Made by a program: the position numbers and the translations under genes
DNA from: a virus
Taxonomy: Duplodnaviria > Heunggongvirae > Uroviricota > Caudoviricetes
Reading direction: 5' to 3' (one strand)
DNA length: 64,000 nucleotides
IMG/VR virus record: IMGVR_UViG_3300045988_154997
Coordinates: 37,871-101,870 of that record
Shown here: piece by piece, positions 6,990 through 62,756 of the stretch
How positions within the stretch are numbered: the stretch's first letter is position 1
Layout of the letters: every line of letters starts with the position of its first letter
Notes under the pieces: model-generated
Seen by the model: only the letters and a program-made list of their open reading frames with translations
The model's database searches: none
What the model was told of the DNA's origin: nothing

Positions 6990-7193
6990 TTCATCGGAGG
7001 GAACTCTCATGTTCCCTCCTGCGTTCTGCAATCACACTCGCTCAGTGTGTCCCATTTCGGTAACGAGGCTGGAAACTGACCTCGCTGGTGTTTGGCTTAT
7101 TAGGCTACTGCCAGATAGACTTCTTCGTTTGCACTTGTATTTAAGTTCAAACAGTCGCGTCTCAACGAAAACAAAGTCATCTTATACATAAAA

Positions 7194-16006: not shown

Positions 16007-17203
16007 TTAAACATCTTTTAGAAAGCCTGGAAACCAATGTTTCATGATATACCTAAAATGTGCTCTAGTTGGTTCAAAAACCTGTCTAGATACCAGCGCT
16101 CCATCAGGATGATTCTGAACAGACTGTTCTTTTTCCATATCGTAAAAATTATGAGTTATCTCTGGGGGGAAGAAAATATTTCTGTCCAGTGGCACTGTCG
16201 CAAAAGGATTGTAGTAAATATGAAGGCCGTCAAAGTGCGTCTCTTCATGAGCAGTGGAATGGCAAACTACAATATCCGCACCAGTGACTTCGTTATTTAA
16301 AAAATGCCGATATGTAGTGATGAAATGATCAGGACCTATCCTTTGTGTGTGCTTTCCCTCGTTTTTCATCCCTTCATTGGCGATGAAATCATTCACATCA
16401 ATGGCTCGATATCGTGTTGACCTTACATATCTACCGATACCGCTTTGAACCACGGCTTTTCCAAAAGTGCCGGTGGTGGAGAAAATAACCGCACTTATTT
16501 CTTTATATGAGTCGTTAGTAAATATACCTAATGGAATTTCAACGTCTTCATTCTTTTTGATTGAGGTAACTTTAGTTTGGCTGCCAGTCACCAAATTTCT
16601 GGTGGTAGGTTCCTCAATGCCAAACAACACTCGATTGATGATTGTGTTATTTTGAGACAATGATAAATCGGAGTCAAAGGGTGCAAGCGCCAGAACAAAC
16701 GGCTTATTAACTACATGAGACATCGTAGAGTACGGGAATTTTTTGCCATTAACTCCTGTAAAAAGATCATGTTTGTCTTTGATTTTTCCGATTAATTTTA
16801 GCGTTGATTGATGTTTGAATTTTGATTCGCTAAAAAGAGCACCTGCAGGTGGATTATGTGGCCGATCTGATATCACAGCTTCGACGTTAAACTGGTAGCC
16901 TGACGGTGTAGTAACACAGAAATCGGGACTGTCTTTTGTGTAGTCGACAGAATAATCGAGACGAATAAACATTTCGTTCAGATACAATTCCCATAAGGCG
17001 GAATTGAAGGTTGTCTGAAACTCTTTAACGAATTTAGTCTGCTCACCGCTACGCTCCAGTAACCCACGCCCCCACGACTGTATCACTTCTCTTACTGGAG
17101 CATATGTATTATCTTGATAAATCTGTTTAAAAGATTCGTGCAGCTTGTTTTTTGCTATTTTGGTTGAGAACAAATCCATTATTAGCCTCACTAACCAGTT
17201 CAA
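16007..17203 (-). CDS. hypothetical protein (398 aa), partner of the DUF2971-like gene
   Basis: Long ORF, moderately AT-rich, no motif recognised; immediately downstream of the DUF2971-like gene on the same strand. Confidence 0.45.
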   Translation of the reverse strand: MNWLVRLIMDLFSTKIAKNKLHESFKQIYQDNTYAPVREVIQSWGRGLLERSGEQTKFVKEFQTTFNSALWELYLNEMFIRLDYSVDYTKDSPDFCVTTPSGYQFNVEAVISDRPHNPPAGALFSESKFKHQSTLKLIGKIKDKHDLFTGVNGKKFPYSTMSHVVNKPFVLALAPFDSDLSLSQNNTIINRVLFGIEEPTTRNLVTGSQTKVTSIKKNEDVEIPLGIFTNDSYKEISAVIFSTTGTFGKAVVQSGIGRYVRSTRYRAIDVNDFIANEGMKNEGKHTQRIGPDHFITTYRHFLNNEVTGADIVVCHSTAHEETHFDGLHIYYNPFATVPLDRNIFFPPEITHNFYDMEKEQSVQNHPDGALVSRQVFEPTRAHFRYIMKHWFPGFLKDV

Positions 17204-18009: not shown

Positions 18010-18369
18010 TTAACCTTTCTTCATCAACTCGCGTTTGATTTCATCGGTACGCATCGTGACGTCGGCAGCAGTGATCGCCTCGTTAAGTTTCACGATATCC
18101 TCGATTTCCTGCGGCGACTTCTCTGCCAGATGGAAAATAGCAGCACGAATCACATCAGAGCGGGTGAATTTCTCGAAGCGAGGGATGAACTTCATCATCT
18201 CCAGCAGTTCGAAGTATTCGTCTTCCAGTGACATTGTGCGGCTTTTAATTTTCTCTTTGCCACGAGTCGGGCGTCCCTGTGGTCTGACTGGTTGGCGCAA
18301 AGGAGTTGTGTTCTTAGCCGGTGCATCAGGCTCTTTGCGCTTTGCTAGGTCACCCATTTTCATGGACAT
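18010..18369 (-). CDS. small partition partner protein (ParG/ParB-like, putative)
   Basis: 119 aa, basic N-terminus then helical C-terminus; directly downstream of ParA with a 1-nt overlap, as in type Ib partition operons. Confidence 0.45.
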   Translation of the reverse strand: MSMKMGDLAKRKEPDAPAKNTTPLRQPVRPQGRPTRGKEKIKSRTMSLEDEYFELLEMMKFIPRFEKFTRSDVIRAAIFHLAEKSPQEIEDIVKLNEAITAADVTMRTDEIKRELMKKG

Positions 18370-19037
18370 TATTCTTCTTCCTCCAGACTCAACAGATAAT
18401 CTACAAATTCTTCAAACTCGGCTTCCGCCTTTTTGTCGCGCTCGCTACCGGTCATTTCAAAGATAGAACGACCAGACTCTTCCGCATCATCGTAGACGTT
18501 GCGGTTATATAGATTGACAGGCGCAGACTCGATGCCAAACGTCTCGACAATCTCTTTAGCCGCCAGAATGCGAGACACTTGTGATGGCAAAGCCGGGCAC
18601 TGGTTCATGACCGCGCGGACCTTCACTTTATCGTTTACATTGCGAACATTGTCGATAATAGGATCGATGTCACGTAAAGATTTCAAATCACGACGCTTAG
18701 GACGCAGCGGGATAATGATAACGTCAGCCATCAGCATCGCTTGTCGCTGAATTTCGGAGTCGAAGCCACCAGCATCTACCACTACATACTCAGCTCTACC
18801 CTGAAGCGATTTTAGGTGCTTAATGATGTCATCCTGAACGTATGCAAAAGGAATCAGCTCAAGGTCTTCGTTCTGTCGACGGTCTTCACACCAGCTCGTT
18901 GTCGTGCGCTGAATATCTATATCGGTGATATAAACCTTCTTCTTCTTTTTGACTTTCAGGCAAACGGCAATTTGCTGGGCAACGGTGGATTTGCCAGGCC
19001 CGCCCTTTGTGCCGCCAACCACAAAGATCTTGGTCAT
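18369..19037 (-). CDS. parA: ParA-family partition ATPase
   Basis: Deviant Walker A GGTKGGPGKST at the N-terminus, ~220 aa, acidic C-terminal tail. Confidence 0.8.
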   Translation of the reverse strand: MTKIFVVGGTKGGPGKSTVAQQIAVCLKVKKKKKVYITDIDIQRTTTSWCEDRRQNEDLELIPFAYVQDDIIKHLKSLQGRAEYVVVDAGGFDSEIQRQAMLMADVIIIPLRPKRRDLKSLRDIDPIIDNVRNVNDKVKVRAVMNQCPALPSQVSRILAAKEIVETFGIESAPVNLYNRNVYDDAEESGRSIFEMTGSERDKKAEAEFEEFVDYLLSLEEEE

Positions 19038-37800: not shown

Positions 37801-39463
37801 CGGTCGCCATCGTGGCAAAGGTGCTAACCATCTGGCTCCCAGCGCCAACTACCCCCATGATCCCTGCTCGCATCAGTTTGAACGCAACCATCGCGGCCAC
37901 GACCTTACCGAGATTAATTACCAGCTCTTGGTTCTTTGCTAACCATTGAGCAAGCTGACGCAACCCATCGATTGCCGTTGTTAACCCCGAACCTAAAGAA
38001 TTGGCAAACGAAATCCCTTCGGCGCTATTCATGATTGAAGCCAGTTCTTTCATCCCCTTCGATAGAGAATCCAGATATCCGGCCTGACCAACCCGATCAG
38101 CAAATAACGTGAATGACGTCTGAAGTTGCGCCAGCGCACCTGTGTAGGTTTGCATCATGTCTTTCGCTGCGTTCTCATTCTCCGCACGCAGACCAACAAA
38201 CATCAGAGACAACGCCTGTTTTGCCTCAACCGTACCGCTGGCAACGGCTTTAGTCAGTTCCCCCATAGTGATGCCTGCGGCGTCTGCCATTGCCTGCATC
38301 GCGTTAGGAACGGCTTCACCTAATTGCTGACGTAGCTCTTCCATTGACACAACGCCCTTACCGGACATCTGCTGAACGGCCACAGCCGCACGTTTCAACA
38401 GCTCACTATCACCACCAAAACGAGCAACGGAGTCCACCAGCGCCTTCAGAGAACCATCGGTTGGATCTAAGCCAGCAGAACGAAACTTCACGAAGGAGTC
38501 TGTTAACGCCTGCATCGCGAACGGCGCATTTTGAGCCATGTCTACGATGTACCTCATATCATCAGCGGCAGCCTGGCCCGGGTTGGACTTCTCCTTATTC
38601 AACCCTCGAAGCATCACCCGCATACGTTCCATTTCGGCCGCAGCTTCAACAATAGGCTTCTGCCACCCAAACATGATGTCAGTAACCGTTCTGGCTGCAT
38701 CTCCGATCTCGCCAAGCAGGAAAATGTTGCCACGAAGGCCAGAGAACATACCTCCTTCGTTACTTTTACCGCTATGGCCAGAAGCGCCGCTACGCCGCCC
38801 GCTACCACCATCGCCACTTCCAGATGTACGAACGCGTACCGGCTTGCTAATCAGTTGCTGACGTCCGATAACTTCGTCCATCTGCTCACGAACCTTTTTC
38901 AGTCCCTCGGCAGCCTGACTCGTTGTGACACCCCAATTACTGAGTCGCTTCGTCGTGGTATTAAGGCGCGTATTCATGCCACTCACGGACGCAGAGGCTT
39001 CTTTGACCTCCGTACCAAAGCGGCTTGCGCTTTTGCTTGCATAGGTCGCCCAATCAGAGAAATCATTTAGCTCTGATTGCACTTTACGTAATGACGCGGT
39101 GAGTTTATCTACTGAAGAAGTTGTCGTATCGACGCGCTCAATCAGGGCTTTAAGACCAGAATTGAGGCTGGTGATGTTGCCACGCATTTTACGCGTAGCA
39201 TCTGAAGCAAGCTCAAAACCGGCAGCTACATCCTGTAGTTTATCTGCCGTAGAATCGAGCTTGCTTTCCAGAACGCCAATGATACGGGCGACCGAACCCA
39301 AAGAGCGTTCAAAGGTTTGGATTTTTTGAGCAGGCTTTGTTACCTGCTCACCAAATCGAGTAAGCAGTTTCCCCGCACGATCGATTGACGCTGTAAACTG
39401 TTTGTCTTCCAGCGACAGGATAAACTCTACGTTTTGTGACATTCCCTTGTCATCCTCTGCCAA
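34889..39463 (-). CDS. H: tail tape measure protein
   Basis: 1524 aa, long helical/coiled-coil central region, hydrophobic Gly-rich segment; position between G-T and M. Confidence 0.85.
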   Translation of the reverse strand: MAEDDKGMSQNVEFILSLEDKQFTASIDRAGKLLTRFGEQVTKPAQKIQTFERSLGSVARIIGVLESKLDSTADKLQDVAAGFELASDATRKMRGNITSLNSGLKALIERVDTTTSSVDKLTASLRKVQSELNDFSDWATYASKSASRFGTEVKEASASVSGMNTRLNTTTKRLSNWGVTTSQAAEGLKKVREQMDEVIGRQQLISKPVRVRTSGSGDGGSGRRSGASGHSGKSNEGGMFSGLRGNIFLLGEIGDAARTVTDIMFGWQKPIVEAAAEMERMRVMLRGLNKEKSNPGQAAADDMRYIVDMAQNAPFAMQALTDSFVKFRSAGLDPTDGSLKALVDSVARFGGDSELLKRAAVAVQQMSGKGVVSMEELRQQLGEAVPNAMQAMADAAGITMGELTKAVASGTVEAKQALSLMFVGLRAENENAAKDMMQTYTGALAQLQTSFTLFADRVGQAGYLDSLSKGMKELASIMNSAEGISFANSLGSGLTTAIDGLRQLAQWLAKNQELVINLGKVVAAMVAFKLMRAGIMGVVGAGSQMVSTFATMATAIQTPFNLGATAVTRFNRAARMGLAPIPSLIFAIRGAITGLKGAFAGLTAFIAANPIGAAFTVATVAVAGLITYMTMLRSETSKVVDEIRKIPEAMTAAKRAQMADRAEKLEKQILADQRALKNGEGVNYVSNSAGVITHKESKADIEARLKKNQEEYQKITGTIALGDGAVAKRLAKEAAESQIEKIRAENQIFAATFVKARQEALDKIQKINDDGSLSDDEKNKLLAPLRETVNKSYLEPAQKLVDSLSSRKNATEKQIATLNDQLEKAKKDGNTEQIQKLQGSIRGYQEHLEAVAQELTQAEFERDNAAKTGKGVMSNQGTVLGLGTTDKAAQKALAQYMRNQMDSATYQRTLPDGTPMMDFEGKPIIGPKQLKTQLNLQKASSASSLEKMSDEERAAAIAALTKAREQDAAAAEKAAQRSANASQRAAKKEQAAQQKLAAGYQKALDKADQLMGQMGESSKATVSFDQSLRDTTKSLTDLANAVPNEFITQEMIDKAKKRLEDLKNATPEYREMFNRRNVEQMISTWAPEADSIISAGYTPSREDKVADFEGTYNRNLKALIELRDKASDPKVVALYTKKINQLIAAGNTALIKETGTATQKLALEYENLAEQIENTWTDLFSGLTDALTDFVINGKMSFSSLSQSILKDITNMVVKSQITLPLMNMLGMGTTAAGSSQSGNLLTGVASAVANQGVRMGNTVNGDKSVGEATKETSSSVTGLGQTTQQTTSAIGTATNAIGSWVSGLFDSTEAKDAETKAVKDSIFSMQNLSSVTGALSAAFAMLGANASGSGNKWLSFGATVASGLVSAWAGGGFDSVTSSSAKTATSSVADGTKGIPAIPKFANGGIFGKDGVIPLRAYQKGGIANSPQLALFGEGSMNEAYVPLPDGRTIPVTLSTDGMSGGGNVLSPVSIEINVHSDGSTTESGDTESIWNNAAQRMKAIALETIAQEKRPGGSLNPNTQRN

Positions 39464-47990: not shown

Positions 47991-49240
47991 GAACCACCAA
48001 GAATAACACGGTTTTTGACTGGATACCTACGATGTACTGGATAGCCCAATGCGTCTGCACTATGCTCAATGCCACCTGTCTTATCCATATCTCGTGTTCC
48101 AGGCTTGTAGATGACTTTTTCCAGTGAATCAATCAAATGCTTGCACTTCGGATCGATATACAGCCGGATATCTCCAGATGCGGACATCAGCATTCGGTTA
48201 ACAGCATTAACACGATCCGCAATTGGCGGGTGCTTTTTCGAATAATCGACACGTAAGAATCCCTTCTCTTTGAATATGTCTACGTCAGACTCCCCACGAG
48301 CATGTTGGCGATAAGCACCTGCCGGATCTGGAAATACCGTTACCTGTGATTTCCAGCGCCAGAAGCGTCTCTCAAGCTCATCACAAACTTCTGCCGTGTT
48401 AGAGGAAAAGAGCACCAATTCATCAATTGCCCATAGCTCACCATTTGGCTGAGGTTGCAAAATTACTGAAGACATCGGGTCAATGTTGAAGTCCTGCCCT
48501 ACCCATATAGGCAACCGAGGGTTGAACTGAAGCGGTTTTACATGCACGTTACGATCGAACGGGTAGTAAACGCGCCCGGACATGTTCTCAAAGCTGGCCA
48601 GGTACTCCTGAGCGAACGATTTGGGGTCCATATCGTTCTTAGCAGCTTCAATTTCCGCCGTAGGTACAAACGGAGAATCGGCAGTTACAAACTGCCAGCT
48701 CTTCCACTGTCCCTTTCTTTGCAGCTCTACGTTCTGGCCTATAGTCCACAGTTTGTGAAATTCCGAGAAGCCTTTTGGCGTACCAATGATCAGTGCACCG
48801 CCGCGTGTCGATGAAAGAGTAGGTCGTAACACCTTGTACCAGGTGTCAGCCTTCATATCCTGAAATTCATCAAGCACTACAAAATGCAACGCTACGCCGC
48901 GCAGAGTGTCAGGCTTATCAGCACCTTTGAGGGCGATCTCCGAACCGTTCTTCAACACGATTGTCATCGTGGTGTCGTTCTTTTTCCTAACCCACTTACG
49001 AGGCAGAACTTCCTGTAGATCGTCCCATAAAATCTGGCGAGCCATCTGGTAAGTAGGAGCGACATACCAGACCCTTTGCTTTTTTTCCTTTGCCGCCGCA
49101 CGAATAATAGTGGAGATCGACAACCGGGATTTTCCCCAGCGTCGACCAGCACAAACAACTTTAAATCGATGCGGAGACTGGAAGACTTTCATCTGTCCAG
49201 AATGCAGTTGCACAAGACTGAGCGAGGACGGGATTGCCAT
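47984..49240 (-). CDS. terminase large subunit
   Basis: Walker A VVCAGRRWGKS, Walker B VVLDEF; C-terminal nuclease-sized domain. Confidence 0.85.
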   Translation of the reverse strand: MAIPSSLSLVQLHSGQMKVFQSPHRFKVVCAGRRWGKSRLSISTIIRAAAKEKKQRVWYVAPTYQMARQILWDDLQEVLPRKWVRKKNDTTMTIVLKNGSEIALKGADKPDTLRGVALHFVVLDEFQDMKADTWYKVLRPTLSSTRGGALIIGTPKGFSEFHKLWTIGQNVELQRKGQWKSWQFVTADSPFVPTAEIEAAKNDMDPKSFAQEYLASFENMSGRVYYPFDRNVHVKPLQFNPRLPIWVGQDFNIDPMSSVILQPQPNGELWAIDELVLFSSNTAEVCDELERRFWRWKSQVTVFPDPAGAYRQHARGESDVDIFKEKGFLRVDYSKKHPPIADRVNAVNRMLMSASGDIRLYIDPKCKHLIDSLEKVIYKPGTRDMDKTGGIEHSADALGYPVHRRYPVKNRVILGGSR

Positions 49241-49872
49241 TATTCGTCCTCCCCTTCACTTCCATCATCTGTCGCATCAAATTCGCTTAGAGCTTCTTCT
49301 TCCAACGTCTCAAGCAATTCGTCATCGATGATTTCAGGCTCGTCGTCTTCCTGACGTAATTTCGCCACCTGGGAAGGCGTAAGCTCACCAAATACCAGGT
49401 TCGGAATTTCTTCCTCGTCATTTTCCGCATGATCCATGCCCAATGCTTTGGACGAAACTTCAAAGCATTTTGCAAGGGTATTACTGGCTCTCTGTAAGCT
49501 CTTGAGAGAATCCTCAATCGCCCCTAAAGGCTTACCCTCACGTTTGGCCGTAGTGACTTCGACCATCACCATCTGCCCCAACGCATACGCCCAGCCGTCA
49601 TAACGTGTACGACGTTCTTCTATCTTTTCCGCACGGGCTTTAGCGCGAAGCTCTGCGTCAGATTTAAGAGACTCACGAACCATCTTCCCAACAGAGTCCG
49701 CGCCTTTCTCTAATCCTCGCTTTTTGAAATGTCTGGAGAGTGTTTCACGACGAATGCCGTACTCTTCCTCCAGCTTTGAGAGTGTATATTCGCCTGACGT
49801 CCATTTGGCTTCAGCTTCGGCCCACTCCGCTGGTGTCAGGCGAGTTTTTACCTCGTCTTTTTCGACCGTCAT
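49240..49872 (-). CDS. terminase small subunit (putative)
   Basis: 210 aa, N-terminal HTH-like YTLSKLEEEYGIRRETLSRHFKKRG, acidic C-terminus; start of the large subunit overlaps its stop. Confidence 0.6.
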   Translation of the reverse strand: MTVEKDEVKTRLTPAEWAEAEAKWTSGEYTLSKLEEEYGIRRETLSRHFKKRGLEKGADSVGKMVRESLKSDAELRAKARAEKIEERRTRYDGWAYALGQMVMVEVTTAKREGKPLGAIEDSLKSLQRASNTLAKCFEVSSKALGMDHAENDEEEIPNLVFGELTPSQVAKLRQEDDEPEIIDDELLETLEEEALSEFDATDDGSEGEDE

Positions 49873-50343: not shown

Positions 50344-51234
50344 TTATGCCGGTAAAGCAATTTCTAACGGTTTATCCAAAGGTTGTTTGTCGAATGCCAG
50401 CAGTGGCAGCGTGTCAGGCAGTCGACGGCCAAAGTCAGGGTTTCGGTACACACCATACAACGGAGACGTAAAGCTCAGGTTGTGAATGTCCTTGAGCAGC
50501 TTCACAATGCTGGCCTCGTCCACCAGACTGTCGGCAATGTCCTGAATCGTCGTGCCACGATTCCGCCCAGCTTTTGCCAGGGAACTGTTCTTGTGGTAGT
50601 CCGCCACCAGATCACGCAGTGCACGGCGACGACGAGACTCGCTCATTGCGAACAACTCTTTGACGATCGCCTCGTTATCACCCGGGTCGGAACGGAAATG
50701 GCGCTGGAATACACGCAGTGCACTTTCATAGCTCTTCGGTCGCTCAGGGCGGATGAACTTAAACCCTGCTTTCATGGCGAAGGGATTGTATTTGCTCATC
50801 GAGGACTGGATCTCAATGATTGGCCGGTCATGCATCCTGCTAACCAGGTTAATCATTCGATAAGAGACGCCTACGCCACGATACTGAGTATCCACAACTG
50901 AGCGACTGATCACCGCAAAGTTGTTATTCACGTACCGACCCCAGTACTGGTTAGCCACGGTGGTATTAGTGGTTGGTTTCAACTTAGGAAACATGCGGTG
51001 GCGAGGTGCCAACAGTAGTTTCGGGTAAGCCATAACCACGACGCCCACCAGACGGTCATCAAGTTCGCAGCGATAGTAAGTTGGCGCGAAAGGTTTGCCG
51101 TCTGTTTTGTAGTGAAGCGACTTAAGAGCGTGCCAGTCCTCTACAGTTCCCTTTGTAACAGTCATTCGCTCCAGAAAGTCCAGATGACGCGGAAACTCTT
51201 CAGGGCGGTAGCGTTTAATGATGATGTCCGTCAT
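50344..51234 (-). CDS. GNAT-fold acetyltransferase-like protein (putative)
   Basis: Motif-A-like TQYRGVGVSYRMINLV (Q-x-x-G-x-G); 296 aa. Confidence 0.45.
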   Translation of the reverse strand: MTDIIIKRYRPEEFPRHLDFLERMTVTKGTVEDWHALKSLHYKTDGKPFAPTYYRCELDDRLVGVVVMAYPKLLLAPRHRMFPKLKPTTNTTVANQYWGRYVNNNFAVISRSVVDTQYRGVGVSYRMINLVSRMHDRPIIEIQSSMSKYNPFAMKAGFKFIRPERPKSYESALRVFQRHFRSDPGDNEAIVKELFAMSESRRRRALRDLVADYHKNSSLAKAGRNRGTTIQDIADSLVDEASIVKLLKDIHNLSFTSPLYGVYRNPDFGRRLPDTLPLLAFDKQPLDKPLEIALPA

Positions 51235-51896
51235 GAATGGACCTCATCATGACTACCATTGTGATATTCCACCTTCACGCGTTCTTTGTAGTGCTTGGTG
51301 ATCTGCATATCCGGGCGCAGCGCGTTCTTCAGGTCTTCGTGAGTCGTCGCCACCATTACCGTCGCACCAACCTTTCGAGCGGCACGCTGGAGGTTAGACG
51401 CCACAACCTGAGCGGTTACACGGTCGAGAACAGCGCCGAACTCGTCAGCAGCCCACACTTTAGCGCCTGACTCAATCAGTTTGGCAATCTTGAGACGATA
51501 TTTCTGACCGTCTGACATTTCAGAAGGCTTGCGAACAAACAGATATGCATCGTTCAGACCAGCCATAGATAACAACCCAAGCGCATCGCTGGTCGTTTTG
51601 CCCAACTGATCGATGACGTTAACCTCATTATCGAAGGTAAAATCATCGATGGAGGCTACAGACAGCCCTTCATCCTTCATCTGTCGTTGCAACTCGCGCA
51701 GCACAACGGATTTGCCGGAACCGGATTGGCCGGTGATGTACACCACATCGCCCTGCTTCACTTCCAGCTCCAGATTGTCGTAAAGCGTCCACTCTTTTTC
51801 GTCCAGGCCAAGCCCGAACGACTCAGCGATTTCCAACGTGCGCGTGGTTTTATTTACGCGTGTCTGAAACGATACGTTGATGATGTATTTGCTCAT
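51231..51896 (-). CDS. ABC-type P-loop ATPase
   Basis: Walker A GQSGSGKS, ABC signature-like LSDGQKYRL (my call; the 4th residue is D, and only one Gly is present), Walker B VWAADEF, H-loop TTHED; 221 aa. Confidence 0.7.
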   Translation of the reverse strand: MSKYIINVSFQTRVNKTTRTLEIAESFGLGLDEKEWTLYDNLELEVKQGDVVYITGQSGSGKSVVLRELQRQMKDEGLSVASIDDFTFDNEVNVIDQLGKTTSDALGLLSMAGLNDAYLFVRKPSEMSDGQKYRLKIAKLIESGAKVWAADEFGAVLDRVTAQVVASNLQRAARKVGATVMVATTHEDLKNALRPDMQITKHYKERVKVEYHNGSHDEVHS

Positions 51897-52594
51897 GCAG
51901 CCATCTCCCCGGAAGAGATCTTCTCCGCATATGCCACAAATGCGTCTACCCCGCTTTCTCCCGTCATTTCTTCCATGTGGGCAAGCAAATCACCAACAAC
52001 AATGGCAGAGCCAGCAGGAAGCGTTTTAAAGCCCAATACGTCGACAACACGTACTTCTTCCGCTGCAACTTCACGACTGATCTCGGTGTGTTCATCCTTC
52101 TGTCGTTTAGTTTCTTCGCCAAGATCGATAACTAGCGAGTCGGTGTCCATTTCTTCTGTCATGCTACCAACGAGAACATTCAACTCACGCTCTTCAAAGC
52201 CGAAAACCTCGATATCGTCCAGAACAAGCGACTCAAGCTCTTTCTGTAGCTTAATTGCATCGTAATCAATGCTGGCAAGTCGGTTATCTTCAAGGCGCTT
52301 CGCACGAACCTCGTCATCACTGAGATCATCGCGAACAATAACCGGTACGCGCTCAAGTCCAGCAAAAATTGCAGCCTCACGGCGGCCGTGGCCAGTAATA
52401 ATTACGTCGTTCTTATCGACCGTAATTGGCTGGTCAAATCCGCGCTTTTTAATGGCTGCGGCTAGATCTCGGATCTGCTGTTCATCATGCTTTTTGGCAT
52501 TCATCTCATAGGGAATAAGATCTGCCGGGTCGCGATATACGATTTCAAACTTTTTGGTCATTACATACGCTCCTTGTAGTAGTCGACCAGCCAC
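51893..52594 (-). CDS. ParB-like nuclease domain protein
   Basis: ParB/Srx N-terminal motif IITGHGRREAAIFAGLERVPVIV; acidic C-terminal half. Confidence 0.6.
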   Translation of the reverse strand: MAGRLLQGAYVMTKKFEIVYRDPADLIPYEMNAKKHDEQQIRDLAAAIKKRGFDQPITVDKNDVIITGHGRREAAIFAGLERVPVIVRDDLSDDEVRAKRLEDNRLASIDYDAIKLQKELESLVLDDIEVFGFEERELNVLVGSMTEEMDTDSLVIDLGEETKRQKDEHTEISREVAAEEVRVVDVLGFKTLPAGSAIVVGDLLAHMEEMTGESGVDAFVAYAEKISSGEMAA

Positions 52595-53259
52595 ACCAGA
52601 GCCTCACCAGCGTTCTCCATTTCATTACCGGTGTTAATAGCCTGCTCTTTGATGATGTTTTTTATGGTTTCTGCAACACGATCTGACGCATCGAAAGTTA
52701 CTTTGAAGCGCATGGTCTGATGTTCCGCACCCACACGTTCGGTTTTCTCTCGTTTGTCGGTATCGACAGGCTCATCACTACCACGAGACAACGCCTCCAG
52801 TGCTTCAAGGTCGATTGCCGCCTCTTTTGCTAAAACCATCGAGATTTCGTCGTCATACGGGGCGATTTCAGACAGTTGATAGTCAAGTTCTGACTGAATT
52901 TCTTCAATGAAGCGTTGCAATGCGATTTGGTCGTCTTCACCGTATCGCTCGTTGTCCACCAGTGACATCTGTTTAGCTACGACATCGCTAATTTTGCCCA
53001 CAGAAAGCACCGGAACCGTTGAAATTCCTTGCTCAATAGCAGCACGCCAGCGATGTTCGCCGCCGAGGATTTCAAAAAATCCATCTTCAAGTTCACGAGC
53101 CAAAATTGGCTTAAAAAAGCCCAATTTTTCGATAGAACCTTTCAGTTTTTCAAAATTCTGCGCACCAACCGAATTGGTGTTCCAGGTATTCGGGCGAAGG
53201 TTGGCAACATCAACCTGCAAAATCGTGATTTTTACATCCATTTTATTGCTACAATCCAC
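52561..53259 (-). CDS. ParB-like nuclease domain protein (second copy)
   Basis: ParB/Srx motif ILGGEHRWRAAIEQGISTVPVLSV; first gene of the operon. Confidence 0.6.
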   Translation of the reverse strand: MDCSNKMDVKITILQVDVANLRPNTWNTNSVGAQNFEKLKGSIEKLGFFKPILARELEDGFFEILGGEHRWRAAIEQGISTVPVLSVGKISDVVAKQMSLVDNERYGEDDQIALQRFIEEIQSELDYQLSEIAPYDDEISMVLAKEAAIDLEALEALSRGSDEPVDTDKREKTERVGAEHQTMRFKVTFDASDRVAETIKNIIKEQAINTGNEMENAGEALVWLVDYYKERM

Positions 53260-55659: not shown

Positions 55660-56184
55660 ATGACAACCAAAGATATTACCTACGGTATCCAAGCTGAACT
55701 CTGGCCGCGAGATTACACTAACGTTGAAAAACTACTGATGTTCTGGCGCAGAGAACAAATTCCTGTAAGGGTCACTCTCGAAGATGGCCAGGCGTTTTGC
55801 ATGTACGTTTATGGCCTCATGCCATCTCGTAACAAAGTTGACCTTTGCCCAGCCCCTTTTGACAAAGAAAATCGTATAAGGCTCCCACTTGAACGCATTA
55901 GTACAATTGAATCAGGTGTGGTTGACAGTATCGCTCACGATTTCAAAGGTCGACTAACAGTTCACCCTGATTATGTCGATAATCGGCCATCACGCCGCGA
56001 TTTTTTTGCAATTTGCAACCAAGCCTACAAAGCAAACAAATCTATAAGGGTGTACATGGCGGATGGCCGTGAAATTGAGGGGGTGTCAGCAGGCGCAGAT
56101 GCTTGTCAGGTTACACTACGTGTCGAGAACGGTAGAAAAATAGTTGTTTTGTTCGATTGGGTTGAACGAATTTTGCCTTTTTGA
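55660..56184 (+). CDS. hypothetical protein
   Basis: Track ORF 55582..56184; in-frame ATG at 55660 (MTTKD) lies just after the upstream stop. Confidence 0.45.
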   Translation: MTTKDITYGIQAELWPRDYTNVEKLLMFWRREQIPVRVTLEDGQAFCMYVYGLMPSRNKVDLCPAPFDKENRIRLPLERISTIESGVVDSIAHDFKGRLTVHPDYVDNRPSRRDFFAICNQAYKANKSIRVYMADGREIEGVSAGADACQVTLRVENGRKIVVLFDWVERILPF

Positions 56185-56779: not shown

Positions 56780-57430
56780 ATGGCTAACATTATCATTTCT
56801 AAAAAATCCATCATTGAAGCTGCTTCCATTGTATCCGATGAACTGCGCGAAAAAGCAGATCTGGCAACTCAAACATATAACGAACATTATAAAAATGGTA
56901 CGCACACTAAAGCAGACAAAGCAAATATGCAAGCTGCGACCACTAAACTTGCTTACTTCATCAACAACGTCGTAAACGCAGTAGAAGACGAAAAATTATG
57001 CTCTGTTTTCTACTATGCGATTAAAGCAAGCAAACAAGCGCCAGAAGTATTTTTCCGTGATGCAATGACTAATAGTTATTCTCTGGAAAAACTGGTTTAT
57101 CTGGTTAAATCAATTAAATCTGGTAAATGCGTTTATTCCATCGCTGATATGTCTGGATCTCGTGTATTCGCTTTAATCGATATGATTAACGACGAGATCG
57201 ACACGTTCACTAATGGCGCTGTTTTCGATTTAATGAATGAAGCTAAAAAAGCGTGTGAAATTAAATTGGACGCTGGTTATACTCAAGCCAACCAGTTGAT
57301 CAATCTTTGCGAACGTCTTGGACTTGTTGAAAAAGTCAAAGGAGCTGGGAGCGCGAAAGCTGGTACTCAGCAATATCGCTTCATTAAAAATGATTTCTAC
57401 AATTATTTAGCTGATGCTTTCAAAGCGTAA
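56780..57430 (+). CDS. hypothetical protein (AT-rich cassette gene 1)
   Basis: 216 aa ORF with AAGGAAAAA upstream; visibly AT-rich. Confidence 0.5.
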   Translation: MANIIISKKSIIEAASIVSDELREKADLATQTYNEHYKNGTHTKADKANMQAATTKLAYFINNVVNAVEDEKLCSVFYYAIKASKQAPEVFFRDAMTNSYSLEKLVYLVKSIKSGKCVYSIADMSGSRVFALIDMINDEIDTFTNGAVFDLMNEAKKACEIKLDAGYTQANQLINLCERLGLVEKVKGAGSAKAGTQQYRFIKNDFYNYLADAFKA

Positions 57431-57702: not shown

Positions 57703-57933
57703 ATGTTTGTTCTTATCGCTGGCGTTAACGTCCATAACGAATATTATGTTAATCGCATCGCTGGGATCGCTGGTTACGCTGGGCGCGCAGTCGAGCTTAT
57801 AGATGAAACGACGCGCAAAATTGACTTATTGAGCGACCAGGAGCGAAAAAAAGCAGACGTGAACGACGCTGATATATTTTTAATGTTAAAAGCGTTTGTA
57901 GAAATGGGATTTAAAATCAGTTTACACAAATAA
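57703..57933 (+). CDS. hypothetical protein (AT-rich cassette gene 3)
   Basis: 76 aa ORF with AAGGAG upstream. Confidence 0.4.
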   Translation: MFVLIAGVNVHNEYYVNRIAGIAGYAGRAVELIDETTRKIDLLSDQERKKADVNDADIFLMLKAFVEMGFKISLHK

Positions 57934-57937
57934 AATC

Positions 57938-57966
57938 GAGCGCCCACTATGGGCGCTTTTTTCGTT
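57938..57966 (+). terminator. rho-independent terminator (GAGCGCCCA-CTAT-GGGCGC + TTTTTT)
   Basis: Strong hairpin with a 6-T run, 5 nt after the stop at 57933. Confidence 0.7.
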
Positions 57967-58420
57967 TCCAATACTCCCACCATAACGCGCCATCATTAGC
58001 ACGTTTTTTATTGTCTTTAACTCACTCCAACAACATAAAAATAAGCGCCAAAATAACGCTATGGACGCGTTTTTATATCCTTACCAGTACATACCCATTA
58101 CTTAACACATTAACGCGCTTAAAACACGTTATATTGCGCTATAGAGTATGGTTAATCATTGGCTTTTAGTCTTGCTTTATGATCCGCGTTTATTTGTCGG
58201 CGCGGATCGGCATTTTGTTTTGTTCCGTATCCGCTCGCGTATTATGTGCGCGTGATTTTTCACATAATCACACCACTTAATCACGTATGTGATTATGCTA
58301 CGAAAGAAAACTGGATGTCTCAGGCGACGAAAGTCATCATAATTTTCCCCGCTCACCTGTCCGACAACCGCTGGTTGGATTCCACCAGCTTCCCGATGTT
58401 TTTTCTACATAAAGGCGAAT
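57967..58420. other. AT-rich non-coding region with short inverted repeats (candidate origin-associated region)
   Basis: No convincing ORF; short IRs (GATCCGCG...CGCGGATC, CATAATCACA...TGTGATTATG); adjacent to iteron-like repeats. Confidence 0.4.
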
Positions 58421-58423
58421 GCA

Positions 58424-58541
58424 GCCGTTTCCCGAAAAAAATCCTGGCCGTTCCCCGTCGGTTCATGAATACGTTCCTCGCCGTTTCTGAAAATTTCCCT
58501 GCGGCAGCTGGTGGCTATAGAGAAAGGGCCGTTTCTGGCCC
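58424..58541. repeat. iteron-like direct repeats, array A (GCCGTTTCCC-type, 4 copies)
   Basis: Copies at 58424, 58447, 58480, 58528; the last lies within a terminator hairpin downstream of the 58551..59033 gene. Confidence 0.5.
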
Positions 58542-58550
58542 TCTTCTCAG

Positions 58551-59033
58551 TTACACGCCATCAAGGATGTGGATGCGGTTGCTTGCGTATACATTCAGCA
58601 TAAAGTTAGCGCAAAACAGTTTCCATGTATCAACGCCAGCGGTATACGTAATGTTTTTGCATTTAATTGCATTGTTGGCGATCCGCATCCCCTGCGATAC
58701 TGCTTCATCGTCGGAAAATTTGAACGACGATTGAGTTTTAATCCAGACAGAAATCTGCGTAGCGAACTCAATCAGCTTGGACTGGCAGAATCGCCCGGAG
58801 CGCACCGGAAAGACGAACGTTCCGAATCCAGAATTTACCACATACGCTTTCTCAAATACCCGCGAGTAACGACGATTGCCAATGATGTCGCGTGCAATAA
58901 TGCATTTTTCTTGTGCTGACAGTTCTACCGTCTCATTGTCGCGCCATGCACCAAGTACTCGTTTTTCAATGTCAGAGAACGTTACAGCGATATTGCCATG
59001 TGCGGGTGCGTTTACAGTAGCGATAAAATTCAT
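58551..59033 (-). CDS. hypothetical protein
   Basis: 160 aa ORF flanked by a promoter-like element upstream and a terminator hairpin downstream. Confidence 0.5.
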   Translation of the reverse strand: MNFIATVNAPAHGNIAVTFSDIEKRVLGAWRDNETVELSAQEKCIIARDIIGNRRYSRVFEKAYVVNSGFGTFVFPVRSGRFCQSKLIEFATQISVWIKTQSSFKFSDDEAVSQGMRIANNAIKCKNITYTAGVDTWKLFCANFMLNVYASNRIHILDGV

Positions 59034-59044
59034 GATTAATTCCT

Positions 59045-59077
59045 TATCGTAAATAACAAATTGTTTTCTTGTTGGTG
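59045..59077. promoter_or_regulatory. conserved promoter/operator element (AACAAATTGTTTTCTTGTTGGTGTTAATTATCG)
   Basis: Best-preserved copy. On the minus strand reads TTAACA-N17-TGTTAT with palindrome AACAATTTGTT in the spacer, then AAGGA and ATG. Confidence 0.5.
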
Positions 59078-59119
59078 TTAATTATCGTTGTACGAATAAG
59101 GCGTCAAAGTGGAAAGTTG

Positions 59120-59208
59120 CGGTAGCCGGACGGGAACAGGTGGGTTTGTCGGTTGCCTGGAGGTAAGAGGTTGGTGTTTTTAGCCTGCGGGAAACAGGAT
59201 GGTCATTT
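59120..59208. repeat. three tandem ~31-bp repeats (CGGTAGCCnGG-N-GAGGTgGG-TTTT family)
   Basis: Same family recurs as two tandem copies at 62295-62357. Confidence 0.5.
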
Positions 59209-59228
59209 AAGGCCATCAATGCTGATGG

Positions 59229-59381
59229 CCTTAATAATTATCGACCGATTACGCTAAGGATCTTTTCCTCAACTGATTTGTTGTTGCGACTAAACTGCCT
59301 TGCGTATCTGATGACAGAAGAGGCGTTTTGCTTTCTGACCATCTCGGCTCTTTCCTTCAGGCGTTTCTTGAAATCGCCCAT
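59229..59381 (-). CDS. small basic protein (50 aa; below the ORF-track cutoff)
   Basis: Hand-translated MGDFKKRLKERAEMVRKQNASSVIRYARQFSRNNKS...; GGTGG upstream of the ATG; hairpin 59201-59224 downstream. Confidence 0.3.
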
Positions 59382-59383
59382 AT

Positions 59384-59758
59384 TTACCACCAGGCGCAGA
59401 AGGTCAGTCTGTTATTGTGAAAGTCGTGGTTCCTGATCAGGTCTTCCACAAGTTTTTTCAGCTTATCCACGTCATGCCAGTAACCTTCGTCGTACTCCTG
59501 ACTGCCGAAGAAAAAACCTTCCCGAGTAGGCAAGTACTCTTCGCAATTGCTTTCGTTTATGTGCATCAAATGAGCTTTCAGAAGACAAATGTCATTCATC
59601 GTTAATTCTAAAAGCTCACAATTTTCGACTTCACCTACGTTGCGCTCCATCCACCCAACGAGCGCATTGAACTTACGGAAGTAAGCAACCTGCTTTCTGG
59701 ATGCCTCGTTATTCAGATCGTTTTTAGGCTGTGTCTCGATATAGATATCAAGTCCCAT
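59384..59758 (-). CDS. hypothetical protein
   Basis: Start placed at MGLDIYIE (59758) with AAGGA 7 nt upstream; the track start 59800 is GTG. Confidence 0.45.
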   Translation of the reverse strand: MGLDIYIETQPKNDLNNEASRKQVAYFRKFNALVGWMERNVGEVENCELLELTMNDICLLKAHLMHINESNCEEYLPTREGFFFGSQEYDEGYWHDVDKLKKLVEDLIRNHDFHNNRLTFCAWW

Positions 59759-59805
59759 GATGGTTTCCTTATTAAGTTGCTTCAGTGAAATCATTTTCAC
59801 AAATC

Positions 59806-59826
59806 AGATAAGGCAGAAAACAAATT
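59806..59826. promoter_or_regulatory. conserved promoter/operator element (GAAAACAAATTGTTATCGGGC)
   Basis: Copy of the AACAAnTTGTT element upstream of the 59384..59758 gene. Confidence 0.4.
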
Positions 59827-59832
59827 GTTATC

Positions 59833-59857
59833 GGGCATAATAAAATGGCGCGGTTTA
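59833..59857. terminator. rho-independent terminator (AAATGGCGCG-GTTTA-CGCGCCATTT), minus strand
   Basis: Perfect hairpin with T-rich tail on the minus strand, downstream of the stop at 59876. Confidence 0.6.
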
Positions 59858-59875
59858 CGCGCCATTTAAAGAGGA

Positions 59876-60271
59876 TTAAGCGAATACGCTTTCAGGGATT
59901 AAGGTGTCGGCAGGAATGCCAGAGGTAATGCGCAGACCGTACTGGCCAATCCAGGTGGTGCTGGTGTTCAGGCTGGAGGCGAATACGGTGTTAACCATAT
60001 TCATCATGGTTTCAAACACCTCTTCATCAACCTGGCGGAAGTAGTTCTCGATTTTCAGCAGCAGCGGGTCAGTTGCATCGAGAATGGACTGGTATTGAGT
60101 CGCGTACTCGCCGCCGGAGGCGTCACCTTTACGCACGATCGTACTGGCCTGGACTTCGGCACCAGTTTCGGTGTTGTACGTAACAACGGTAATTTTTGCC
60201 ACATTCTTACCTTCGGCGGTTTCAGAGGCATAGTAAACATCAACTGTCAGTTTTTCGCGTTTAACGGTCAT
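59876..60271 (-). CDS. hypothetical protein
   Basis: 131 aa ORF between a terminator and an upstream palindromic motif. Confidence 0.5.
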   Translation of the reverse strand: MTVKREKLTVDVYYASETAEGKNVAKITVVTYNTETGAEVQASTIVRKGDASGGEYATQYQSILDATDPLLLKIENYFRQVDEEVFETMMNMVNTVFASSLNTSTTWIGQYGLRITSGIPADTLIPESVFA

Positions 60272-60314
60272 TTCACTCTCCGTAGTGTATTGGTTATTTT
60301 TCTATTCTATGATC

Positions 60315-60330
60315 GTAAGTATGTACTTAC
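60315..60330. promoter_or_regulatory. dispersed motif copy GTAAGTA-tg-TACTTAC
   Basis: Near-perfect palindrome ~45 nt upstream of the 59876..60271 gene start. Confidence 0.4.
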
Positions 60331-60340
60331 AATACAAAAA

Positions 60341-60363
60341 AGCCCCGTAAGGATGGCGGGGCT
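60341..60363. terminator. rho-independent terminator (AGCCCCG-TAAGGATGG-CGGGGCT), minus strand
   Basis: Hairpin followed by TTTTTT on the minus strand, downstream of the stop at 60398. Confidence 0.6.
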
Positions 60364-60397
60364 GTCGTACGGTCGACTAATTACCACTTGCACATTA

Positions 60398-60708
60398 TCA
60401 GGCTATTGCCATCACTGATGCTCTCTGAATCTCTTGCTGGGCCACGCGGTTAACTTCCATCAAAGCCAGTTCGAGCTGATGTTCCGGCCACATTCTTTGA
60501 AATGCCACCCAGCCTTTTCCACGCTGGCGACGAACATTCATTACATAACGAGTAAAGGTGTTTTTATCGAAAGACACCGCTGTTTCACGGAACAGACGAA
60601 TAGAGGTCCCATTGGCAACGATGTCCAGCAAAGTTAATTGAGCAACCAGTGCAGGCTTCTCTTTTCTCTTCTGGTCTTTGTCCAGACCAAGAACCAATGA
60701 TTTTTTCA
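60398..60708 (-). CDS. hypothetical protein
   Basis: Start placed at MKKSLVLG with GGAG 6 nt upstream; the track start 60739 would overlap the promoter element. Confidence 0.45.
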
Positions 60709-60721
60709 TCACAACTCCGTA

Positions 60722-60750
60722 AACAACTTGTTTTCTCAATGGCGTAAATA
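60722..60750. promoter_or_regulatory. conserved promoter/operator element (AACAACTTGTTTTCTCAATGGCGTAAATAAT)
   Basis: Copy of the AACAAnTTGTT element directly upstream of the 60398..60708 gene. Confidence 0.45.
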
Positions 60751-60862
60751 ATACCAGTAAGAAAACGGCTACAAAGCATATTGATCAGGTGCATGAGCTA
60801 TATGCAGGTTCTTCCCTGCGGCTATAGAGAAATTAAGCCAGCAATGCTGGCTTTGGTTGGGG

Positions 60863-61213
60863 TTACTCGAATACTTCAAGAAACTCCTGAACGTCCCAAT
60901 GCTGGACGAGGTGAAGATAGACCTTAGAAATCACGTCATTTTCGCTATCGCATGTGAAGTAGTACTTCTGGCTGCGGTTGTATGTGTCCACACAAAATTC
61001 GCTCATATCCATAAAGTCAGCATCTTCACCCATGTCGCAAATCATCAAAGCAGGTGCGTCATCACGAGTCATCAGCTCAAGCACCCACCGCGAATTGATC
61101 AGAGTGGAAGACCAACCTTCTAACTCATAAAACTGATCAAACTCTTTTTGAGTTAATTTCTTGATTTGGTTGATGTCGATATTTGCAAACATAAAGCAAT
61201 CCTTAAACAACAT
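60863..61213 (-). CDS. hypothetical protein
   Basis: 116 aa acidic ORF; start possibly at the internal MFANIDINQ (61192). Confidence 0.4.
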   Translation of the reverse strand: MLFKDCFMFANIDINQIKKLTQKEFDQFYELEGWSSTLINSRWVLELMTRDDAPALMICDMGEDADFMDMSEFCVDTYNRSQKYYFTCDSENDVISKVYLHLVQHWDVQEFLEVFE

Positions 61214-61236
61214 GTTTTCTTGATGGTGTTATTATC
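61206..61236. promoter_or_regulatory. conserved promoter/operator element (AACAACATGTTTTCTTGATGGTGTTATTATCG)
   Basis: Copy of the element at the 5' end of the 60863..61213 gene. Confidence 0.45.
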
Positions 61237-61555
61237 GCAATAACGCACAGGCGAAAAAGGATTTTATTCCGGTGAATGTGGTTTTGGCAGTGAGTTTTCA
61301 GGTTCAGTACCGAGTACACTTTTTACATTATTCTGATTTAGTGGCCGAAAGTGGCTGGTGGGCAGAATAATCCTCTCCCCGAAAACCTACTGAAATCGAT
61401 TGTGACCCGTTGGCTGTCTGGCACAATTACGCTGTAGCTGGGCATTCAGAGGGAATCCAGCGGTAAGCAAGTCCGCCTGCACGTGAGCGCCTCTCTTCTT
61501 CCCGCACATTACAGGTGGGTAGCCGCAACTCTCCCTCTCGCTATACCGGTACGCC

Positions 61556-61690
61556 GCCGTTCCTGAACCGGCATCGAGCCTTTTCCCGAAATCCACACAG
61601 GCAACTCGACCGTTTCCCTGAAAACCTCCAGCCGTACCCCGAAGGCAACCCAGCCGTTTCTGTAGCGGGATGCAGCCTTTTCCCTGTATG
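61556..61690. repeat. iteron-like direct repeats, array B (6 copies of GCCGTTTCCCTG-type 10-mer at ~22-bp spacing)
   Basis: Copies start at 61556, 61578, 61609, 61631, 61653, 61675; spacing 22 bp (one 31-bp gap). Confidence 0.6.
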
Positions 61691-61899
61691 GACCGAAGGC
61701 TGACCGTAGGGGTGTTACGGGGGATAAAATCAGGAGTTGAATAAATACGAAAAAGGAGGCGACACCCCTCCTTCCCTCCCGACTTATACATACCTGGCTT
61801 CTTCGCTATACATGTTGTGTTTTCTTCGTGTTTTATCTGTTTCAACCTCTCTATAGGCGTTAATGCTCACTCCTTCCAGAACGTTCTATACGGCGACTA

Positions 61900-62520
61900 T
61901 TTCTGTTGGTGAATTGGGTGTGTTGTTTTCTCTGTCGGTGTATGTGGTTTCGTTAGTTTTGCGGTGGTTCTTCTATGGGGTGTTCTCGTCGTTTTGGTGA
62001 TTGTTCTTCTCCGTCTATGGAGTAATGGCAGGTGGGCGATTGCTTTCGTTATTGTGTTTGAGTTGTTTGTCTGGAGTGTGTGAAAGGCTTTTGTAGTTAT
62101 TCGTGTATTGGGTAATGGCGTTTCCCGTGATTGTTATGTTTCGTGTCTTTTGGGATTGAGAGAAACCTTGCGGTTACAGGCTTCGTTGGGGTTTCAGTGA
62201 TTCTGGTGTTTCTTCGCTGTTTGGGTAATGGCGTGTCGTGGGTATCGCGCGTATGAATGTTTTCGGATTGCCTGTGAAAGTTAGGTTGGTTGTCCGGTAG
62301 CCTGGGGAGAAGAGGTGGGTCTTTTCGGTAGCCTGCCATAAAGAGGTTGGCTGTTTTGGGTAATGGCATATGTGTTATTTAGTTGTTTTGTTATGCCTGA
62401 AAATAAGTTGTTTATATGTTTGTGTAACGCAACGGGAACGATTTTGAGCGTGTGTTTTTGTTGGTAGTGTGTTGGGTCGTCTGTGGTGAAAATTGGACGC
62501 TGTGGCGCTGTCTGCTGCGT
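61900..62520. repeat. G+T-rich strand-biased non-coding region with internal repeats
   Basis: Plus strand almost only G and T; GGGTAATGGC recurs at ~62111, ~62223, ~62359; two tandem 31-bp repeats at 62295-62357; no credible ORF. Confidence 0.5.
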
Positions 62521-62756
62521 AGAATTACGGGTATAAGCAGTGATGTGTGAAAACGTCAATTTTTTAGACCAAATCGGGTGAAAGCGTTGATGTTTCGTTG
62601 ATCTGTTATTCAGTTGTTTTCTTGATTGTATAAACAACTATAACTTATTGATATTTAAGGATGTGATTGCGGGTATGGAAGGAGAGTAGTGGCGATCAAC
62701 GGATTCTTATAGAAAAGAATCAAATTGTGACCGCCATTATCAATGAGTTGCAACCG

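Follow-up and report, generated by a model that had tools for sequence, protein, structure and literature searches.

Two phased direct-repeat arrays conserved in SSU5/pHCM2-type phage-plasmids as candidate protein-binding platforms apart from the RepA replicon

Background

In iteron replicons such as P1 oriR/incA, RK2 oriV, F and pPS10, direct repeats are spaced about two helical turns apart, lie in more than one cluster and vary in copy number by whole units. In repeat-array centromeres (R1 parC/ParR, pB171 parC1/parC2, pBtoxis tubC/TubR, pSK1 Par), the binders are small ribbon-helix-helix (RHH) or winged-helix proteins, and the RHH binders use short direct-repeat arrays in two clusters, as in R1 parC and pB171. 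Here, we describe two arrays of phased direct repeats, A and B, in a 64,000-nucleotide (nt) stretch of a tailed-phage record of IMG/VR (IMGVR_UViG_3300045988_154997, positions 37,871 to 101,870), hereafter the window, which is assigned to an Escherichia coli phage-plasmid of the SSU5/pHCM2 family.

Other described systems also bear on this locus. In the satellite phage-plasmid P4, ori and crr carry the same short repeat in two clusters several kb apart that act jointly in cis, and the binder is the alpha primase-helicase. The plasmid prophage N15 has dispersed centromeres: its partition sites are palindromes, bound by the helix-turn-helix protein SopB, that are scattered among the phage genes at a distance from the par operon. 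Packaging sites are also commonly clusters of short repeats, such as R1-R3 of lambda cosB, the gpNu1 binding sites.

The arrays share the three features of iteron replicons named above, but no Rep gene, DnaA box or unwinding element adjoins them, only 9-11 of every 22 bp are conserved, and the P1-type RepA of the element, with its unrelated iterons, is located elsewhere and can be swapped while the arrays stay constant. Unlike repeat-array centromeres, they stand apart from the partition genes, and no NTPase is encoded beside the gene for a winged-helix protein of 216 amino acids (aa) considered below as a binder. The two-cluster layout is that of P4, although no link to a primase-helicase was seen; remote sites on a plasmid prophage are also found in N15, as palindromes instead of direct-repeat arrays. 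With lambda cosB the arrays share a CGTTTCC heptamer and the clustering of short repeats; they differ from it in the terminase of the element, which is T4-type and lacks a Nu1-like small subunit, in their distance from terS, in the strictly direct orientation of the units and in occurring twice, 3 kb apart.

This is a clinically important family, to which pHCM2 of Salmonella Typhi, pMT1/pFra of Yersinia pestis, Klebsiella plasmids of the pKPHS1 type and CTX-M carriers of E. coli belong. To our knowledge, the maintenance of these phage-plasmids and their switching between plasmid and phage are largely unstudied.

Results and discussion

Window positions 57900-61900 were 100% identical to the E. 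coli plasmid pYLPM7a (NZ_CP073997.1, 112,588 bp; window position x is x+16850 of that record) and 94-98% identical to the Escherichia phage-plasmids Cyrano (pLF82), CMS-2020a and PhiR41_1. The element encodes tail, head and terminase proteins, its own DnaB-like helicase, primase and Pol III alpha, UvsW/X/Y-like proteins and ParA, and it has a RepA plasmid replicon.

The short phased repeat CCGTTTCCC forms two clusters 3.1 kb apart, at fixed positions on either side of a variable block of small genes.

61556..61684, minus strand: array B, six units, spacing 22/31/22/22/22 bp
58424..58505, minus strand: array A, three solid units
58519..58541, minus strand: intrinsic terminator of the 160-aa gene, whose hairpin holds the fourth 'copy' of array A (58528-58537)

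The motif reads CCKTTTCCC on the plus strand and, on the gene strand, as the 11-nt C[A/G]GGGAAA[A/C]GG, with a phasing of about 22 bp. All units have one orientation and lie on one face of the helix, three to six per array. The preliminary description of this DNA, made from the sequence alone, had reported six copies of a 10-mer 22 bp apart in array B, and we located all six, with one gap of 31 bp (plus-strand starts 61556, 61578, 61609, 61631, 61653 and 61675). Of the four copies that it gave for array A, three stand as solid units (58424, 58447 and 58480); they are 23 and 33 bp apart, where relatives have a spacing of 22, and 48 bp separate the third from the fourth at 58528. That fourth copy is doubtful as a unit because it is the stem-loop GGGCCAGAAACGGCCC of the terminator and relatives read GGGGCTGGAAACGCCCC there. 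On the gene strand, array A reads CAGGGAAAT..CAGAAACGGC..CGGGGAACGGC..CGGGAAACGGC, and a partial CAGGGAAA is found at about 58495-58503.

Across the plus strand of the 64 kb, 10 of the 11 matches to RCCKTWYCYS fall inside arrays A and B. Allowing up to two mismatches, GCCGTTTCCC matched the window 68 times, against 45 +/- 6 in shuffles, with five matches within 135 bp at array B (Poisson P 1.5e-8) and four within 114 bp at array A (Poisson P 5e-7). The clustering of the motif is beyond chance. When the whole 112.6-kb plasmid was scanned with Tandem Repeats Finder (TRF) and for k-mer clusters, the only iteron-like clusters were the RepA iterons, arrays A and B, and a family at 59120-59203. The base composition around array B is 58-59% G+C.

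Three Chi sites (GCTGGTGG) adjoin the arrays, at 58507, 58382 and 61354. The 112.6-kb plasmid has 21 of them, against about 3.4 expected; this excess is the one known from E. coli DNA, where Chi is enriched, and it is unlikely to be particular to the arrays.

We found 716 matching plasmid records for the array B region and 779 for that of array A, from Klebsiella, Escherichia, Enterobacter, Salmonella, Citrobacter, Cronobacter and Shigella, and from Yersinia for array A alone. None of the 716 records annotates array B, and in the 779 the only annotation that overlaps the array A query is the end of the adjoining hypothetical gene. The arrays are mentioned neither in these database records nor in the papers on pECOH89 (PMC3999498) and Cyrano (PMC9928086). 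A pattern scan of IMG/VR gave 73 loci, 70 of which align to the window (SSU5-like) and three of which are unrelated; among the matches listed in a genome scan were scattered, chance-like single matches and Kluyvera SSU5-like contigs. As far as these matches go, we set aside the idea of a host-factor site or of a spread beyond this family.

We aligned 32 distinct sequences for array B and 52 for array A, with 31 and 51 distinct IMG/VR relatives, respectively. Motif columns are 90-100% conserved and spacers 50-70%, the conserved core of each unit being 9-11 of the 22 bp, and the final two units of array A are nearly invariant. Units are in register in pTB212, Enterobacter, pKPHS1 and pHCM2. Clean deletions of 22 or 44 nt distinguish several relatives, and array B thus behaves as a collection of units that are gained and lost whole; a divergent clade has four perfect GGGAAACGG units at 22-nt spacing. 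The non-coding DNA around the arrays goes down to about 68% identity or cannot be aligned (Moellerella and an AT-rich metagenomic relative). The core unit is present in K. ozaenae CP027615 and Moellerella pW18-2-b, and twice, as AGGGAA(A/C)GTTTTCCC, in the AT-rich metagenomic relative. As judged from these alignments, the arrays are conserved through the whole SSU5/pHCM2 family. The arrays are direct repeats of an iteron-like kind, in phase with the helix and subject to strong purifying selection. This fits a protein-bound control locus, and that part of the earlier view stands.

In pMT1, array A is retained, and array B and the small genes are gone through an IS1541-associated deletion. We considered this plasmid as a natural experiment and rejected it, as the divergence is too recent to interpret. 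In Moellerella pW18-2-b (6990-7090), array A is followed by five CTCATTTGAG repeats, (T)CTCATTTGA(G/T)AA, in AT-rich DNA, an additional iteron-like set that the E. coli window does not have.

Both arrays lie right behind intrinsic terminators and are therefore shielded from transcription: on the gene strand, they begin 30-70 nt downstream of the terminators at 61776-61749 and 58541-58519.

61749..61776, minus strand: intrinsic terminator directly upstream of array B on the gene strand, ending a CA-rich transcript
57938..58260, plus strand: stack of five terminator-like hairpins (57938, 58055, 58180, 58195, 58236)

The terminator in front of array B preserves G-U pairs on the minus strand only. 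The hairpin stack is conserved, stands behind a convergent plus-strand operon and shields array A from it; the region has 14 terminator-like sites, against 5.8 +/- 2.6 expected. What had been described as an AT-rich stretch rich in inverted repeats turned out to be this stack of tandem plus-strand hairpins, with no DnaA box and two GATC sites. An AT-rich unwinding element was accordingly rejected.

The 58% G+C and two cUUCGg-like loops prompted us to consider a structured RNA or ribozyme, which we rejected. The minus-strand fold of array B (z +0.73) was equalled or exceeded in stability by 146 of 200 shuffles; 25 sequences gave a loose consensus fold with few double changes, from two clades; indels remove whole units; and Rfam gave no match for the arrays at E up to 1, CsrB/C included. 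Acting as RNA, the arrays might also be read-through 3' regions offering a CAGGGAAA/GGA sponge or regulatory site to CsrA or to an FljA-family protein (55660-56184). Several units fit CA(R)GGA, this post-transcriptional repressor is encoded 2.3 kb away, and a long CA-rich untranslated transcript stops just upstream of array B. However, both arrays are behind terminators, the fold is no more stable than shuffles, covariation is limited to two clades, Rfam is empty and conservation covers GGGAAACGG, well past the GGA core, so we regard this as the least probable of the readings weighed here. A fold more stable than chance, covariation beyond two clades and a known family, as of a structured or sponge non-coding RNA, were not found. 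We conclude that the arrays probably act as double-stranded DNA in transcription-free zones.

The FljA-family protein, of 174 aa and encoded on the plus strand, matches the family over its full length (PF03614, 'repressor of phase-1 flagellin', E 1.5e-84) and is also found in pMT1. FljA blocks the translation of fliC mRNA, and the phage-plasmid copy suggests a lysogenic control of host flagellin.

From the conserved, phased layout, it is highly probable that the arrays are double-stranded-DNA binding platforms for one sequence-specific protein of the SSU5/pHCM2 backbone. One candidate for this protein is encoded next to array A.

56780..57430, plus strand: 216-aa protein (phrog_1513), C-terminal winged helix, candidate array binder

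In all relatives examined, this gene is directly left of the array A intergenic region, with one or two tiny open reading frames (ORFs) between them in the closest ones; this order is also seen in pMT1, K. ozaenae, Moellerella and a metagenomic contig (L212). The gene belongs to an operon headed by a UvsW-like helicase. The protein has no Pfam match, and its family comprises 23 representative clusters among 1.84 billion proteins. An AlphaFold model built with 18 homologues (predicted local distance difference test, pLDDT, 82; predicted template modelling score, pTM, 0.72) has an N-terminal helical domain and, at residues 126-201, a canonical winged helix with the predicted order alpha1-beta1-alpha2-alpha3-beta2-wing-beta3. 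At 34% overall identity, few stretches are invariant, and (Y/F)TQxNQ, with which the predicted recognition helix starts, is one of them; it is kept in L212. Its invariance parallels that of the GGGAA(A)CG core of the arrays, a co-conservation and not a proof. For this protein and for a 249-aa protein encoded upstream of the helicase, Foldseek against viral structures and PDB sequence searches gave nothing specific. We put the 216-aa protein forward as the candidate binder with somewhat more doubt than confidence.

Two neighbouring ParB_N-domain proteins and an ABC-type ATPase are encoded at 51231-53259 (minus strand), between the terminase genes and the UvsW-like helicase. This cluster is kept in pMT1, Moellerella and a metagenomic relative, and its proteins could be further candidate binders of the arrays.

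In the mechanism that we propose, the 216-aa protein would bind the arrays and oligomerise on the phased units, and the bound protein may bridge arrays A and B across the 3.1 kb. The most likely role of such a complex would be that of a centromere-like or pairing site maintaining the plasmid prophage; alternatively, it may be a boundary that silences the variable, possibly toxic early-gene block. By elimination, the arrays are the best centromere-like candidates, because the par genes have no repeat array of their own. Taken by itself, a maintenance function of the putative complex is doubtful, and the statement as a whole –DNA platform, 216-aa binder and maintenance role– is tentative, with the balance slightly against it.

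Several points weigh against this proposal. The array motif was not found at the promoter of the 216-aa gene itself, the fold, a winged helix, is generic, and in a backbone that is syntenic throughout, the proximity of the gene says little. A distance of 40 kb separates the arrays from parA, whose promoter has no copy of the motif, and the RHH partner of ParA, with an equally invariant DNA-reading strand (IKSRTxSxEDE), is an equally co-conserved candidate. pMT1 keeps array A yet lacks the ParA and RHH genes, which carries little weight given how recent the divergence is.

This RHH protein leads to a different assignment, in which the arrays would be a remote parS/parC-type centromere of the type Ib ParA (222 aa) and the RHH protein (117 aa), with the latter coating the repeats and ParA moving the complex. 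The preliminary description had drawn parA into its argument; the gene is indeed present (18369-19037, in a parA-RHH locus at 18010-19037), at a distance of 40 kb that counts against the link. In E. coli, Cyrano and K. ozaenae, three diverged members, no repeat array adjoins the par genes, and the sequence shared upstream of parA is limited to a promoter of about 110 bp. Hardly any other repeat clusters exist on the plasmid once the RepA replicon is set aside, and in form the arrays, as putative binding sites, would suit a partition centromere. The beta-strand of the RHH protein is invariant down to 30% identity, matching the invariant motif, and the RHH gene and the arrays have nearly identical taxon distributions, although such co-occurrence is expected for any backbone pair. 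The arrays are neither in nor next to the par operon or its promoter, and that promoter has, instead of a GGGAAACGG unit, a AAACAAnTTGTTT palindrome, more typical of an RHH operator. A co-variation test with diverged ParG-like proteins (48% and 30% identity) was set aside as non-discriminating, as both the DNA-reading strand and the motif are unchanged. On balance, we consider a ParA-RHH centromere unlikely.

Between the helicase cluster and parA, at 16007-17203 (minus strand), a 398-aa protein is encoded that is missing from SSU5-like phage records; its only likeness, a distant one at about 24% identity, is to proteins from temperate phages of other kinds. We examined it as a Rep protein and rejected it, since it is absent from the phage relatives and accessory; it is an accessory insertion, possibly a defence gene.

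The arrays and the genes between them had first been proposed as a plasmid-type replicon, and this claim fails. The element's P1-type RepA (364 aa) is encoded outside the window, at 1-1095 of the pYLPM7a record. Upstream is GATC-rich DNA with a DnaA-box-like sequence, and both flanks of the gene hold iterons, at least 11 in all, of the form TATGCTGYCAGCGGT, which is unrelated to CCGTTTCCC and has no occurrence in the window. Cyrano has arrays 97% identical, but a different RepA with CTMTAGTGGAT iterons at 21-bp spacing. The two RepA types have 48% similarity (pECOH89 paper, PMC3999498). Since Cyrano keeps the arrays with a swapped RepA and swapped iterons, the arrays do not belong to RepA. We therefore rejected them as RepA iterons, the real replicon having been located beyond the window and its iterons, unrelated in sequence, being exchanged among relatives that are otherwise nearly identical. 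In the IncpKPHS1 Klebsiella plasmids, the published iterons adjoin repA and are RepA iterons only (PMC6735626).

Near the arrays, the initiator-type direct repeats with 22-bp phasing are present, limited to a 9-11-bp core, and the other parts of an iteron replicon were not found. No adjacent Rep gene co-varies with them, in agreement with the earlier remark that no obvious Rep initiator is seen: neither the neighbouring proteins nor the 249-aa protein has a Rep-type domain. Neither array region has a DnaA box (up to one mismatch), a GATC cluster (two GATC sites only), a site for integration host factor (IHF) or an adjacent unwinding element, and no iteron cluster was found inside or near the 249-aa and helicase genes. 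Gene orientation sets the plasmid-wide cumulative GC skew, which runs monotonically between extremes at RepA and so tells nothing about the arrays.

These results also bear on whether the arrays are a second, RepA-independent origin, for example for the lytic phase, with a distant control or enhancer array and the 216-aa or 249-aa protein as initiator. Such an origin would resemble P4 ori plus crr, or an oriV plus a handcuffing array. It would fit the iteron-like 22-bp phased units in two clusters a few kb apart, the transcription-free intergenic zones, the element's own helicase, primase, Pol III alpha and UvsW/X/Y-like proteins, the winged-helix gene in the UvsW-like helicase operon, and the five CTCATTTGAG repeats after the Moellerella array. 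It would not fit array regions with no DnaA box, GATC cluster or AT-rich unwinding element beside them (array B is 58% G+C), just 9-11 conserved bp in 22, no detected Rep-family domain, and GC-skew extremes at the RepA origin and not at the arrays. We consider a second origin quite improbable, and less likely than the centromere-like or pairing complex.

Packaging was the other function that we weighed, with the arrays as pac or cosB-like recognition repeats for the small terminase subunit, a case that the preliminary description had itself named as one that would refute its reading. All three lambda cosB repeats, R1-R3, contain CGTTTCC, the core of CCGTTTCCC, although a shared 7-mer is within chance reach. 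The large terminase subunit (TerL) is of the T4/headful type, and the small one (TerS) has no Nu1 or other Pfam match. The arrays are neither in nor beside terS (49240-49872), which is 8.5-12 kb away. We know of no pac layout with two arrays 3 kb apart and genes between them, which also counts against such a role. None of the checked phage records has its start at the arrays: that of Cyrano is at terS, and the ends of SSU5 and PhiR41_1 are far off. A terminase site is thus very improbable.

Between the arrays, the small genes are arranged as follows, together with the other features of the region.

58551..61192, minus strand: variable small-gene block, products of 160, 50 (uncertain), 124, 131, 103 and 109 aa, function not assigned
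58551-59033, 59384-59758, 59876-60271, 60398-60709 and 60863-61192, minus strand: the five small genes
59054..59109, minus strand: conserved promoter and AAACAAnTTGTTT operator module, with more copies at 59818-59830, 60721-60776, 61205-61260 and about 62401-62413
59120..59203, plus strand: second repeat family, CGGTAGCCnG..GGRAA.AGGTGGGT, three copies 28-30 bp apart
61840..62650, minus strand: CA-rich untranslated block (gene strand A 0.39, C 0.29, G 0.14, T 0.19)

The content of this block varies between relatives. The five small minus-strand genes had each been credited with a promoter-like element and a terminator: the genes and all the terminator hairpins were found, and the promoter module was found for all except the 131-aa gene. 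In this module, a -10 element is followed about 8 nt downstream by the 13-bp palindrome AAACAAnTTGTTT. With up to two mismatches, the palindrome has 17 matches against 6.65 expected. It stands at at least nine minus-strand promoters (15045, 19073, 49913, 49938, 59054, 59818, 60721, 61205 and 62401), among them those of parA, terS, the DnaB-like helicase gene and four small genes, and it looks like a putative operator of a global regulator.

The CA-rich block extends for about 0.85 kb from a promoter/operator module to the terminator in front of array B. Its plus strand has a GC skew of about +0.45 and an AT skew down to about -0.6. While its sequence diverges, the block retains this bias and a length of about 1 kb in pTB212, Enterobacter, pKPHS1, pHCM2, K. 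ozaenae and Moellerella. The block has no conserved ORF and no Rfam match, and its RNA could be a Rho-loading RNA or a sponge for an RNA-binding protein.

The three copies of the second repeat family are upstream of the 160-aa gene promoter, and two more are inside the CA-rich block (62295-62351). Two of its units hold GGGAA(A)CAGG, similar to the array motif in the opposite orientation. Finally, between array B and the next promoter (61300-61470, minus strand), there are the conserved blocks TCTGCCAGAC.. and GATTTCAGTAGGTTTTCGGGGAGA and a long hairpin, ATTATTCTG...CAGAATAAT, with a compensatory stem change in pTB212 (GATATTCTGC...GCAGAATATC).

Conclusions

Few non-coding sequences of the SSU5/pHCM2 backbone are as well conserved as arrays A and B, which more than 700 sequenced plasmids carry. 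Showing that they are not the replicon prevents their mis-annotation. Together with the orphan 216-aa protein and the CA-rich transcript of about 0.85 kb, they may form an undescribed cis/trans maintenance module of SSU5/pHCM2/pMT1-type phage-plasmids, a proposal that we advance as speculative. It could serve as a remote centromere, or else as an origin or control element that is independent of RepA (lytic-switch), and would be separate from the RepA-iteron and ParA systems. Should the arrays prove to be a centromere, a second origin or a silencing boundary, they would be a target for curing and incompatibility tools. They would then also open a way to study how the variable early-gene block is controlled, and an orphan protein family would gain a function.

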